From positions 1,744-65,743 of the forward strand of contig CBDVDH010000016.1 in NCBI GenBank assembly GCA_965372715.1: a DNA stretch of 64,000 nucleotides, read 5' to 3'. Made by a program: the position numbers and the translations under genes. Positions 13,437-17,833 of the stretch are shown here, in pieces. The stretch is from an uncultured bacterium. GTDB lineage: Bacteria > B130-G9. The notes under the pieces were generated by a model. It did not search any database and was not told the origin of the DNA. It was given only the letters and a program-made list of their open reading frames with translations. The first letter of the stretch is position 1, and each line of letters opens with the position of its first letter.

Positions 13437-14681
13437 CTACGCCATGTTCTGTATTAACGCCGAGGCGTATTCCGACGTCTTGAGTTTGGTCGCGCCTTCC
13501 ATCAGCCGATGTAGGTCATAAGTGACCCGTTTCTGCTGGATGGTCTTTGCTATCGCGGCATAGACCAGCTGAGCAGCTTCGTCCCATTCGAGGTGCTCGA
13601 GCATCATGACGCCAGAGAGGATGACCGAGGTCGGATTGACCATATCCTTATTAGCGTATTTTGGCGCGGTGCCATGCGTCGCCTCAAAGAGCGCGATCTC
13701 GTCGCCGATGTTGGCACCTGGCGCCATGCCGAGGCCGCCAACCTGAGCGGCGCAGGCGTCGGAGAGGTAGTCGCCGTTGAGGTTGGGAAGCGCAACGACT
13801 TCGTATTCGTCGGTGCGCGTCAGGACCTGCTGGAGCATGCTATCAGCGATCCTGTCCTTGATGACGATCTTGTCCTCGGGCTGCTTACCGTCGTATTTGT
13901 CCCAGAGCTCCTGCTCGGTGATGGTTACGTCACCGAACTCCTCCCTGGCCAGCTCATAGCCCCAATCCTTGAAGGCGCCCTCGGTGAACTTCATTATGTT
14001 GCCCTTGTGAACGAGCGTTACGCTCTTGCGGTCACGCTTGATCGCATATTTGATCGCCGCTCGGACGAGGCGCTTGGTGGCGAACACGCTAATTGGCTTT
14101 ATGCCGATGCCGGAGTCCATTCTGATGTTCTCGCCCATCTCTTTGTTGAGGAAGTCGATGACCTTCTTGACCTCGTCGGTACCTTCCTGCCACTCGATAC
14201 CCGCATAGACGTCTTCGGTGTTCTCACGGTATATGACGATGTTCATCCGCTCTGGGTGCTTTACAGGGCTCGGGACGCCCTCAAAGTATCTGACGGGTCG
14301 GACGCAGCTGTAGAGCTCCATGACCTGCCGCATCGTGACGTTGAGGCTCCTGTAACCGCCGCCCACCGGTGTGGTCAAGGGCCCTTTGAGAGCAACGAGA
14401 AAGTGGCTGATAGCGTTGATCGTGTCCTGGGGAAGCACCTCACCGTATTTGGCCTGGGCGCTATCGCCAGCATAGACATCGAACCACACGATCCGTTTCT
14501 TGCCCCCGTAGGCCTTATGAACGGCGCCATCCAGCACGCGGCGTGTCGCCCTCATGATGTCGGGACCTATTCCATCACCCTCAATGACCGGGATGATAGG
14601 ATTATCAGGAACGACAAGCCTGCCGCCCTCAACAGTGATCCTCACCCCGTCTGTCGGCGGAGCTATCTTGTCAAATTGCAC
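13437..14681 (-). CDS. icd: NADP-dependent isocitrate dehydrogenase, prokaryotic homodimeric type (start 14681 or 14687)
   Basis: [64 protein letters not shown]. Confidence 0.95.
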
Positions 14682-14711
14682 AGTCAATCTCCTCTTTCCT
14701 CTCACAAGGAG

Positions 14712-15218
14712 TTAGCCAAGGTTGAAATCGCCATATTTGCCAATGTGATTCAGAAGCCCGCCGTCCTCAAGTATCTTCTGCATGACCTTCGGCAGCGAAG
14801 CAAAAGGAATCTCCTTTTTCTTAGTCAAGTTGTGAACGACGCCCGCGTCAAGATCAACCTCGAGCTCGTCACCGGTATCTATCCTGTCAGTGTTGCAGAT
14901 TATCACCGGCAGACCGACATTGATAGCGTTTCTGTAGAATATCCTCGCGAACGATTTGGCCAGAACGGCGCTTACCCCGGCCATCTTTATGATAGTTGGC
15001 GCGTGCTCGCGGCTCGAGCCCAGGCCGAAGTTGCCTCCGCCGACCACGAAATCGCCCTTGCTCATCTTGCTGGCGAACTCGGGGTCTGCGTCCTCCAGAA
15101 CGTGCTTTGCCAGCTCCGGTAGATTGGAGCGCAGGTGAAAAAGCCGCCCCGGGGCGATGTGGTCGGTGCTGATGTCGTCCCCGAATTTCCAGGCCTTGCC
15201 TCTCATCTTCTCCATCAT
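14712..15218 (-). CDS. leuD: 3-isopropylmalate dehydratase/homoaconitase-family small subunit (LeuD-type)
   Basis: FGDDISTDHIAPG, NFGLGSSREHA, SFARIFYRNAINVGLP; ATGA overlap with the large-subunit stop. Confidence 0.88.
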   Translation of the reverse strand: MMEKMRGKAWKFGDDISTDHIAPGRLFHLRSNLPELAKHVLEDADPEFASKMSKGDFVVGGGNFGLGSSREHAPTIIKMAGVSAVLAKSFARIFYRNAINVGLPVIICNTDRIDTGDELEVDLDAGVVHNLTKKKEIPFASLPKVMQKILEDGGLLNHIGKYGDFNLG

Positions 15219-16477
15219 ATCACCTCCCGAGGATCGGTTATCTTCCCAGTCAAGGCCGTCGCCGCGGCCGTTGCGGGGGAAGCCAGGTAAATGAAGCCCT
15301 TGGGATTGCCCATCCGGCCCAGGAAGTTGCGGTTTTGCGTGGTCAGGCACGCCTCGCCGTCGCCGAGAACGCCTTGGTGAACGCCAACACACGGCCCACA
15401 GCCTGGCGGCAGAATCAAGGCGCCAGCATCGATCAAGGTCTGAAGCGTCCCATCCTTGAGGGCCGCGGTCAGGATGCTCCTGGACGCTGGAGCAACCAAC
15501 AGTCTAGTATCCTTGTCGCGCTTTTTGCCCTTCAGAATGGACGCCGCCACTTGAAGGTCCTCAAGGCGCCCGTTAGTGCAGGTCCCGATGACGACTTGGT
15601 CGATTTTCACGGGGTCCATCTCCCGTATCTGGTTCATCGTCCTGGTGTTATCGACCGTGTGAGGAAACGAGACCGTCGGCTCCACCGTCGAGACATCTAT
15701 CTCGATGGTCCTCTCATATTCAGCGTCCGCGTCAGGCGAAATCGACCTGAAAGCATCGCCTCGACCCATCCCCTGCAAATAAGCCTCGGTTACCTCGTCC
15801 GATGGAAAAAGCCCAACCTTGGCGCCCGCCTCGACTGCCATATTGGCCACCGTGAGTCGGCCGGACATATTCATCTCCTCAACGGTTCCGCCGGAGTATT
15901 CGAGCGCCTTGTAGGTTGCTCCGTCCGCGCCAATCATTCCTATCAGGTGAAGGACCAGGTCCTTGGGATAGACACCATCCCTGAAGTTACCCTCAAGCTG
16001 TATCCTAAACGTCTCAGGAACTCTGAACCACGTCTTCCCCAAAGCCATCGCGATAGCGACATCCGTTGAGCCCATCCCTGTCGCAAACGCGCAGAGTGCT
16101 CCGCCGGTGCAAGTGTGAGAGTCTGCACCGACGTGAACATCCCCGGGGGCCAAGTATTCCTCTGGTATGATCTGGTGGCAAATCCCGTCACCAACCTCGG
16201 ACAACACAGCCCCTGTCTTCTTGGCAAAGCGCCTCAGCAAAGCGTGATCGTTTGAGAGCTCTTTGCGCGGAGAAGGCGCCGCGTGATCGAGGAAGAGCAC
16301 CGTTTTGTCGGGGTGCGCCACTCGTTCCATTTCGATCTTCTGAAGCTGCCGAACCGCGAGCGGGCCTGTGCCGTCCTGCACCAGGCAGACATCAACCGAG
16401 GCGATAATGAATTCGCCGGCCCGAACCGCACGTCCTGCGTGCTCAGAAAGGATTTTCTCTGCTAGCGTCCGTCCCAT
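15215..16477 (-). CDS. leuC: 3-isopropylmalate dehydratase/homoaconitase-family large subunit (short archaeal-like LeuC type)
   Basis: GADSHTCT, IGTCTNGR, GCGPCVG (three Fe-S cysteines), TQNRNFLGRMG; 420 aa. Confidence 0.9.
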   Translation of the reverse strand: MGRTLAEKILSEHAGRAVRAGEFIIASVDVCLVQDGTGPLAVRQLQKIEMERVAHPDKTVLFLDHAAPSPRKELSNDHALLRRFAKKTGAVLSEVGDGICHQIIPEEYLAPGDVHVGADSHTCTGGALCAFATGMGSTDVAIAMALGKTWFRVPETFRIQLEGNFRDGVYPKDLVLHLIGMIGADGATYKALEYSGGTVEEMNMSGRLTVANMAVEAGAKVGLFPSDEVTEAYLQGMGRGDAFRSISPDADAEYERTIEIDVSTVEPTVSFPHTVDNTRTMNQIREMDPVKIDQVVIGTCTNGRLEDLQVAASILKGKKRDKDTRLLVAPASRSILTAALKDGTLQTLIDAGALILPPGCGPCVGVHQGVLGDGEACLTTQNRNFLGRMGNPKGFIYLASPATAAATALTGKITDPREVI

Positions 16478-16561
16478 AATCCTATCCTTCTGTCATGCTA
16501 CTGGCCGTGGTCTTGAAATAGGGAATGCCCCTTCAAAGAGGCACTCCCCGACGTAGTGGTC

Positions 16562-17833
16562 TTAGACCAACGATGAAAGTCGATTGAAGTCAAGCGATTT
16601 CGGCCTGTTGATTGCAGTTCCGATGCCACGGTGCAGGATCAACTGCGAAAGCATTCCCATCACCCTGGATACGCTGAACAGCACGGTGTAATACTCGAAC
16701 TCGCGGAGCCCGTAGTGGTAGAGCAGCGAGCCTGAGCCGGCGTCAACGTTCGGCCACGGGTTCTTGATCTTGGGGAACTCCTTCAGGACGTTCGGAACGA
16801 CCTCAAAGACTGTGGCAACCGTCTTGAACACAGGGTCTTCCGGAATGTACTCCTTGCCGAACTCGAGGAACCCGGCGAAGCGTGGATCGGTCGTTCTCAG
16901 GACAGCGTGTCCATAGCCCGGAACTACCTTGCCGGCCGCAAGCGTGTCCCTGGTGTGCTTCTCAATCTGCTCCTTCGTGGGAACGCCGTCGAACTTCTCC
17001 ATCAGTTCCAGTATCCAGTTGAGGCACTCCTGGTTGGCAAGGCCATGAAGCGGGCCAGCCAGCCCGTTTAGCCCAGCGGACACCGCGTAATACGGGTCGG
17101 AAAGCGCCGACGAAACGGTGAAACACGTGTAGGCGGATACGTTGCCGCCCTCGTGATCGGAGTGGAAAGTCAGATACAGTCTCATCAGCTTCGTGAAATC
17201 GCCCGTTGGGTCGGCGACGCCCAGCATGTTGGCGTAGTTGGCGCCCAGGTCGAGTCCCATCGTCCAGGGGATTATGTCGCCCTTGTCATAGCGAATGCGA
17301 TAGACCCCCGCGGCGATTGAAGGGACCTTGGCCAGAATGTGAAGCGCATCCTCAAGCGCGGGAATCCAATACTGGTCCTTGGTCATGCCCTCTGAATACA
17401 TCTTGCGGAACACGCTCTCGCGCTCCAGGACAAGAATGGCGGTGTCCAGCATCGCCATCGGATGGCTGTCCTCGGGCATGGCCGTAAGGACGTCCCAAAC
17501 GTATTCCGGGACATAGGAACGCTTGTCGAGGTCCTGCTGGAGGGCTTTCTTTGCCTCATCATCCGGGAACTCACCGGTCAAGAGGCAGAAGAATACCTCC
17601 TCCGGCCACTTGTCCTTGATTTCGAGCAGCGGATGGCCGCGGATTATCAGGCCCTTGTCAGGCTCGACGAGCGATGTGTCGCACAACAGGCCGTAAACGC
17701 CCCGGAGACCTCCCAAAAACTGCGCCACCGTGACCTTTGATATCTCCTTGGCGCCGTGCTCCTTCGCAAACGCCTTGATCTTCTGACGATACTGCGGAAT
17801 CTGCACGGCCAACTTCTGCTGCAAAGTTGCCAT
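16562..17833 (-). CDS. gltA: Citrate (Si)-synthase, eukaryote/Geobacter-like type
   Basis: HSDHEGGNVSA, GLAGPLHGLANQE, VVPGYGHAVLRTTDPR, PWPNVDAGSG; N-terminal GGLRGV...DTS.V.P..G typical of the mitochondrial-type clade. Confidence 0.92.
   Translation of the reverse strand: MATLQQKLAVQIPQYRQKIKAFAKEHGAKEISKVTVAQFLGGLRGVYGLLCDTSLVEPDKGLIIRGHPLLEIKDKWPEEVFFCLLTGEFPDDEAKKALQQDLDKRSYVPEYVWDVLTAMPEDSHPMAMLDTAILVLERESVFRKMYSEGMTKDQYWIPALEDALHILAKVPSIAAGVYRIRYDKGDIIPWTMGLDLGANYANMLGVADPTGDFTKLMRLYLTFHSDHEGGNVSAYTCFTVSSALSDPYYAVSAGLNGLAGPLHGLANQECLNWILELMEKFDGVPTKEQIEKHTRDTLAAGKVVPGYGHAVLRTTDPRFAGFLEFGKEYIPEDPVFKTVATVFEVVPNVLKEFPKIKNPWPNVDAGSGSLLYHYGLREFEYYTVLFSVSRVMGMLSQLILHRGIGTAINRPKSLDFNRLSSLV

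Follow-up and report, generated by a model that had tools for sequence, protein, structure and literature searches.

The window analyzed here, a stretch of 64,000 nucleotides from an uncultured bacterium (GTDB lineage B130-G9; assembly GCA_965372715.1, contig CBDVDH010000016.1), carries a four-gene operon in which two adjacent genes are assigned with high confidence, as judged from sequence, to a heterodimeric [4Fe-4S] aconitase feeding an isocitrate dehydrogenase (Icd). The pair is very probably the sole aconitase of this bacterium. The assignment is based on gene order, active-site residues, alignments, missing alternative genes, and co-occurrence across genomes. As the initial annotation had noted, the genes lie in pathway order in one operon, which is on the minus strand and consists of a citrate (Si)-synthase of the eukaryote-like PRK09569 type (423 aa; 16562–17833), a LeuC-size large subunit covering domains 1–3 (420 aa; 15215–16477), a LeuD-size small subunit corresponding to domain 4 (14712–15215; 167 aa from the ATG at 15215, with an alternative ATG start at 15218), and an NADP-type Icd (414 aa, GTG start; 13437–14681), followed by a terminator-like hairpin. 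The genes for the putative aconitase subunits, recognized by profiles and alignment, overlap at TGATG. The citrate synthase passes the PRK09569 model (515, cut-off 344), and the dehydrogenase is by its sequence a clear NADP-Icd, with the S-L-N isocitrate motif RSLNVTMR, a passing score against TIGR00183 (682, cut-off 567), and 2IV0 as the top structure match (E 2e-183).

In alignments, the large subunit conserves the cluster ligands C300, C360, and C363 as well as D64-H65, H101, D119-S120-H121, R383, and R388, and S67-S68-R69 of the small subunit correspond to aconitase Ser642-Ser643-Arg644; the three cluster cysteines and the catalytic His, Asp, and Ser residues of canonical aconitases are all present. 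Gln72 and Arg580 of aconitase bind substrate, and both have aligned equivalents in the pair, namely Gln34 and Arg29. Gln34 belongs to a QDGT motif (codon 16376–16378, minus strand) and aligns with Gln72 of mitochondrial aconitase (1ACO), whereas this position is His in the Methanocaldococcus jannaschii isopropylmalate isomerase (IPMI; 4NQY/4KP1) and homoaconitase (4KP2) and Asn in LeuC. Among aligned large subunits, LeuC proteins have ND(I/V)T or HDIT and homoaconitase-like proteins HDN or HDG, QDGT occurs in two related two-subunit clades, and all single chains of the PRK07229 and mitochondrial types that were checked have QDAT, except for one with EDAT.

Arg29 (codon 15131–15129) lies in the substrate loop PGRLFHLRSNL of the small subunit (15120–15152, minus strand), in which His-Leu-Arg is invariant in 120/120 closest homologues. 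The loop, of which the initial annotation had read PGRLFHLRS, is confirmed as TDHIAPGRLFHLRSNLP and aligns with TDHIMPAGAKILPLRSNIP of PRK07229 aconitases (TDHIMPAG..LRSNIP). It also aligns with the KYRGHL stretch of mitochondrial aconitase, which places Arg29 at Arg580; the two residues probably match in space as well, with a loop that is one to two residues shorter. The initial annotation had compared this Arg to that of the YLRT loop of M. jannaschii homoaconitase (2PKP). The Arg is indeed shared, but it aligns with YLRT only across a two-residue gap, and Arg580 is the better fit. Because the loop Arg cannot alone separate aconitase from homoaconitase, and because a sister clade lacks it, the combination of Gln34 and LRSN is the better marker.

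The large subunit passes only broad subfamily models of the aconitase family, including the homoaconitate hydratase family model TIGR01343, and remains below the LeuC equivalog TIGR02083 (499 vs 611) and the methanogen HacA cut-off (450 vs 550). Likewise, the small subunit is below the LeuD equivalog TIGR02084 (190 vs 246) and HacB (194 vs 230). The single-chain models are not reached (PRK07229, 399 vs 612; TIGR01340, 197 vs 825), and the four domains that canonical aconitases carry on one polypeptide are here divided between open reading frames of 420 and 167 aa. Domains 1–3 are 36–40% identical to single-chain aconitases of the PRK07229/TIGR01342 and mitochondrial types. NCBIfam holds no equivalog covering the QDGT/HLRSN clade. 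The nearest named homologues are from Ca. Coatesbacteria (86–92%), which makes this group the probable host lineage, and others originate from WOR-3, Zixibacteria, Gastranaerophilales, Syntrophorhabdaceae, Archaeoglobaceae, Actinomycetota, Bacillota, and further groups. Every named homologue carries the database name 3-isopropylmalate dehydratase small subunit, in agreement with the earlier suspicion that such genes are mis-annotated as leucine biosynthesis.

The gene complement points in the same direction. The assembly of the window's genome is 95.9% complete and contains three PF00330 genes, with frames of 425–439 aa each. Aconitases of the AcnA, AcnB, mitochondrial, and PRK07229 types were not found in the genome, the AcnA, PRK07229, and mitochondrial queries hitting only these three genes, and no long aconitase was found in six relatives. 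A canonical aconitase elsewhere in the genome, which the initial annotation regarded as contrary to its proposal, was therefore not detected. No HMGL-like (PF00682) gene was found in this genome or in five relatives, and the genome therefore lacks LeuA, CimA, homocitrate synthase, and Re-citrate synthase; the earlier observation that leuA, leuB, and homocitrate synthase do not occur near the operon is confirmed, and for leuA and homocitrate synthase it extends to the whole genome. IlvB and IlvC also have no match in the genome, which together with the missing PF00682 synthases leaves the leucine and aminoadipate routes without an entry enzyme. Gene absence from assemblies falls short of proof, and the pattern of absence recurs across the family. 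All four operon genes are kept in order in five relatives, while the sixth has citrate synthase, large subunit, and small subunit before the contig ends. The proposal of a two-subunit aconitase replacing AcnA/AcnB is thus supported by synteny, co-occurrence, and the predicted active site.

Across other genomes, the identity of the adjacent dehydrogenase follows the residue at position 34. Leaving out the window's relatives, the dehydrogenase bears the Icd S-x-N-V motif in 28/28 loci with Gln; in loci with Asn it bears the E..LL motif of isopropylmalate dehydrogenase in 12/12 and the Icd signature in 0/12, and both counts include kin and are not independent. The upstream synthase is variable and even non-homologous between loci, being either a Si-citrate synthase (this genome, L007, and L173) or one of three kinds of HMGL synthase that are similar to Re-citrate synthases, found beside the pair in Syntrophorhabdus and Gastranaerophilales. 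These HMGL-type neighbors may be Re-citrate synthases, for which mis-annotation as homocitrate synthase is known (PMC12016533). At locus L007 (3425–7793), the two subunit genes are separated by the citrate synthase gene, and the gene that comes next is Icd-like but divergent, with an N-terminus rich in Lys.

Only two of the 46 genomes with either Gln clade have a long aconitase-family frame, and the two-subunit copy in both has His instead of Gln. Among random genomes of unrelated families, a recognized aconitase is absent from 18/19 with a Gln-type pair (Gln unread in one), and a long single-chain family member is present in 20/28 without such a pair. The 644-aa gene of genome G131 encodes a LeuCD fusion that does not reach the aconitase cut-offs. 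In seven Gastranaerophilales genomes, the large subunit of the pair is the only PF00330 gene and Icd the only PF00180 gene. Two Gastranaerophilales genomes possess another dehydrogenase that scores higher, and both also encode an additional large subunit, with NDIT; the one of these two subunits that was scanned passes the LeuC model. In Archaeoglobaceae, the PGRY(F/Y)HLR loop occurs in 39/41 genomes and NADP-Icd in 40, and in none of the 41 does a PF00694 match fall within a frame that could accommodate a fused aconitase. A PF00694 search alone would not rule out AcnB; none was found in PF00330 searches of two of these genomes. The second small subunit of Archaeoglobaceae, where read, has a hydrophobic YLVIN loop. 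In archaea such as Archaeoglobus, for which no aconitase of a usual kind was found, the same enzyme family may fill this role. Almost as confidently as the assignment in the window itself, QDGT/HLRSN pairs can be regarded as a distinct and widespread aconitase subfamily found in Archaeoglobaceae, Gastranaerophilales, Syntrophorhabdaceae, and several candidate phyla.

In a tree of large subunits, those of HLRSN pairs form a clade (97/89). Its sister, with weak support (83/58), is a Gln clade lacking the loop Arg, and LeuC proteins with NDIT are placed apart (100/99). The sister clade (L038–L056, L082, L100, and others) has QDGT and the loop ISG(K/R)YKFK, occurs in Bacillota, Coriobacteriia, Omnitrophota, and Methanomassiliicoccales in clusters of synthase, large subunit, small subunit, and Icd, and is probably a second type of two-subunit aconitase without the loop Arg. 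In the domain-4 tree, HLRSN subunits and single-chain aconitases lie on one side of a branch supported at 99/98 (85/85 without the loop columns). The large-subunit tree does not join the clade to PRK07229 aconitases, and approximately unbiased tests neither reject nor show that grouping (p 0.18 and 0.23); a special kinship with the aconitases of the tricarboxylic acid (TCA) cycle is therefore a possibility, and the trees do not establish a simple origin by fusion or fission from PRK07229 aconitases. The extended proposal, in which the subfamily is a surviving unfused relative of PRK07229 and mitochondrial aconitases that joins LeuCD-type enzymes to TCA-cycle aconitase, is accordingly tentative and somewhat doubtful. 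A complex model of the two subunits scored 0.93 compared with 0.01 for the best control, with 97% agreement between runs and a partner predicted local distance difference test score of at least 92; the mark applied is attained by 58/80 solved and 2/110 mismatched pairs. Loop residues 26–31 are at the modeled interface. This result is expected from the likeness to fused aconitases and is silent on substrate.

Several observations weigh against an aconitase function for the pair. The overall sequence of the large subunit is nearer to IPMI and homoaconitase (E 4e-116 and 1e-110) than to aconitase (4e-49), and two further LeuCD-type pairs in the genome could in principle do the job of an aconitase. 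Genome G098 has both a Gln-type pair and a PRK07229 aconitase, and strict mutual exclusion with canonical aconitase is therefore rejected. A few sister-clade loci (L053 and L182) have His in place of Gln yet an Icd neighbor, which, together with the sister clade lacking the loop Arg, means that neither residue is demonstrated to be necessary. Moreover, methanogen homoaconitase hydrates cis-aconitate and is not known to turn over citrate, so that the citrate half-reaction is the part least assured by family likeness.

One alternative is a broad tricarboxylate hydro-lyase acting as both aconitase and homoaconitase, or an enzyme catalyzing only the cis-aconitate/isocitrate half-reaction while another enzyme dehydrates citrate. 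The TIGR01343 match, the loop Arg common to 2PKP, and the many homologues adjoining synthases scored as nifV/homocitrate synthase would agree with either form. However, such scores are weakened by the known mis-annotation of Re-citrate synthases (PMC12016533), no homocitrate synthase was found in this genome or five relatives, the neighboring gene is a true Icd, and homoaconitase-type proteins (4KP2; TIGR00139 member L158) have His-Asp, all of which make this explanation improbable. An isopropylmalate or citramalate isomerase for leucine or isoleucine, with an incidental position between gltA and icd and another LeuCD paralogue as the aconitase, would account for the database names, for the M. 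jannaschii IPMI subunits as the top PDB matches, and for the presence of an IlvD-like gene and a second beta-decarboxylating dehydrogenase in the genome. This is very improbable given the missing LeuA/CimA, IlvB, and IlvC and the scores below the LeuC and LeuD equivalog cut-offs; in addition, true LeuC is the separate NDIT clade, which co-exists with the HLRSN clade in the same genomes (L141, L143, and L125), and the paralogues of this genome have HDNA and RDFG without an Arg loop. Citrate synthases and aconitase-family enzymes often take methyl analogues, which would allow for a 2-methylcitrate pathway of propionate use with an AcnD-like enzyme and a methylcitrate synthase. This is the least probable of the alternatives, as the PRK09569-type synthase falls far short of the methylcitrate synthase models, icd is the gene downstream, and no clear PrpB was found, PF13714 giving only a weak partial match (E 3.5e-6, positions 3–107 of 240).

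With the pair as an aconitase, citrate synthase would join acetyl-CoA and oxaloacetate to form citrate, which the two-subunit enzyme would convert via cis-aconitate to isocitrate, and Icd would then yield 2-oxoglutarate and NADPH. The large subunit would carry the [4Fe-4S] cluster and Gln34, and the small subunit would provide the catalytic Ser67 and Arg29, the latter binding the third carboxylate like mitochondrial Arg580. Here we infer the catalysis of both half-reactions, the residue roles (from known aconitase structure), and the direction of flux. The 2-oxoglutarate and NADPH may feed the glutamate synthase encoded in the genome as the products of a non-cyclic oxidative branch. The gene complement fits such a branch to 2-oxoglutarate: malate and succinate dehydrogenases were not found in this genome, seven genomes gave no malate dehydrogenase, and the sole large PF00890 gene is NadB. 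A full TCA cycle is rejected for this genome on these grounds. In the window's genus (G000 and G047), no glutamate dehydrogenase was found; the other family members, G048–G052, have one, which is stop-broken in G049. The window's genome also encodes a pair resembling SucC (513 aa) and SucD, neither of which reaches the succinyl-CoA ligase cut-offs, and the gene after them belongs to the citryl-CoA lyase family (PRK06224; L199:2059–5364, G000:C43). This set may be a citryl-CoA synthetase/lyase system or may serve a different tricarboxylate; it could permit citrate cleavage, which would change the purpose of the operon and not the aconitase assignment.

Two-subunit aconitases have been suggested before. 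The TCA operon of Dehalococcoides mccartyi has a putative two-subunit aconitase beside the assayed isocitrate dehydrogenase DET0450 (Islam et al., 2015, PMC4720418, supplement Fig. S2). Large subunit, small subunit, and dehydrogenase share one operon there as in the window, and the likeness is one of gene order; the Dehalococcoides pair is an aconitase by annotation only, and its operon has mdh and fumarase instead of a Si-citrate synthase. For Omnitrophota without AcnA, IPMI-annotated enzymes of the aconitase family were proposed as the replacement, likewise in a branch that terminates in 2-oxoglutarate (Williams et al., 2021, PMC8542988). That proposal is a supplementary table footnote with no signature or test, and the Omnitrophota example analyzed here, L054, falls in the sister clade, with QDGT and the Arg-less loop GRYKF. 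In a classification of the aconitase superfamily from 2021 (PMC8184944), homoaconitase, IPMI, and AcnX are the only members with domain 4 as a subunit of its own. AcnX was once predicted to be the missing archaeal aconitase but has other activities. No enzyme test of a two-subunit aconitase pair was found in a literature search that covered few subscription papers, and an assay may already exist.

Compared with defined families, the pair shares the QD motif, the TDHI...R loop (LRSN; Arg580), SSR, the three cluster cysteines, and icd, mdh, or citrate synthase neighbors with the single-chain aconitases of about 650 aa (PRK07229/TIGR01342) and of the mitochondrial type (1ACO), but theirs is one polypeptide whereas the window proteins are two, below both cut-offs. 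It is most similar overall to the two-subunit M. jannaschii homoaconitase (4KP2/2PKP) and IPMI (4NQY/3VBA) and to LeuCD (TIGR02083/TIGR02084). These differ in the His or Asn at the position of Gln34, shorter loops (YLRT, YLVY, and YLNT), and other pathway neighbors. With HacAB the pair has the loop Arg in common, and it lacks the His-Asp motif, the passing scores, and a homocitrate synthase in the genome; the features of LeuCD that are missing are the passing scores, the grouping with LeuC (NDIT/HDIT), LeuA/LeuB, and a hydrophobic or YLNT loop. The pair would thus work like an aconitase while standing outside every defined aconitase family, as an architectural variant already proposed informally.

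The genome harbors other members of the superfamily. A scattered second set consists of an orphan small subunit in the window (39280–39759, minus strand; loop PGKYTYT), an orphan homoaconitase-like large subunit with HDNA (G000:C2:63181–64473), and a beta-decarboxylating dehydrogenase that shows no Icd or isopropylmalate dehydrogenase motif (G000:C70:14309–15430; L201:3310–4431), and it is kept in relatives although an HMGL synthase was not found. A third LeuCD-type pair (G000:C86:7044–8966; L002) has unusual motifs, RDFG and, in the loop, HNAHLHVTD, and is also found in relatives. In a Thaumarchaeota metagenome-assembled genome (L166:715–5043, G030:C5), the CxxC cluster motif of a 1442-aa AcnA is interrupted by an intein-like insert (about 520 aa) that begins with C-I-A-E-G-T and ends with V-H-N before Cys.

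Downstream of the operon, a 12-bp terminator-like hairpin with a T-tail, identified by pattern match alone, lies directly 3′ of icd (13392–13420, minus strand). Hairpins across the region are not above chance (9 vs 6.0 in shuffles), but the stem of this one is much the longest. A promoter search gave no signal above chance. The next gene (12088–13353, minus strand) encodes a LarA-family nickel-pincer hydroxyacid racemase, for which the best model is the malate racemase LarAH6, below cut-off, and is probably accessory to the operon. A larA-family gene also lies 3′ of icd in four relatives (L116–L119) and between citrate synthase and mdh in the unrelated genome G131 (L194:6280–7521), which has an aconitase-like pair as well. 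LarC is encoded in the window's genome. Further downstream, three low-GC genes (10106–11846, minus strand), including a TIGR04255-family protein (11079–11846), appear to form a cassette of sporadic distribution that has no relation to the operon.

Aconitase chemistry as such is ordinary, and a two-subunit enzyme for it has been suggested previously; the present analysis adds a signature in the sequence, delimits a clade, and offers a testable candidate from a family that has members in culture. The clade provides a concrete replacement candidate for the missing aconitase in Archaeoglobaceae. This family includes cultured species, and the question is therefore directly testable. If the assignment is true, many anaerobes reconstructed as lacking aconitase, or as having an extra leuCD, would be capable of 2-oxoglutarate synthesis from acetyl-CoA, and some of the apparent pathways to leucine would be false.

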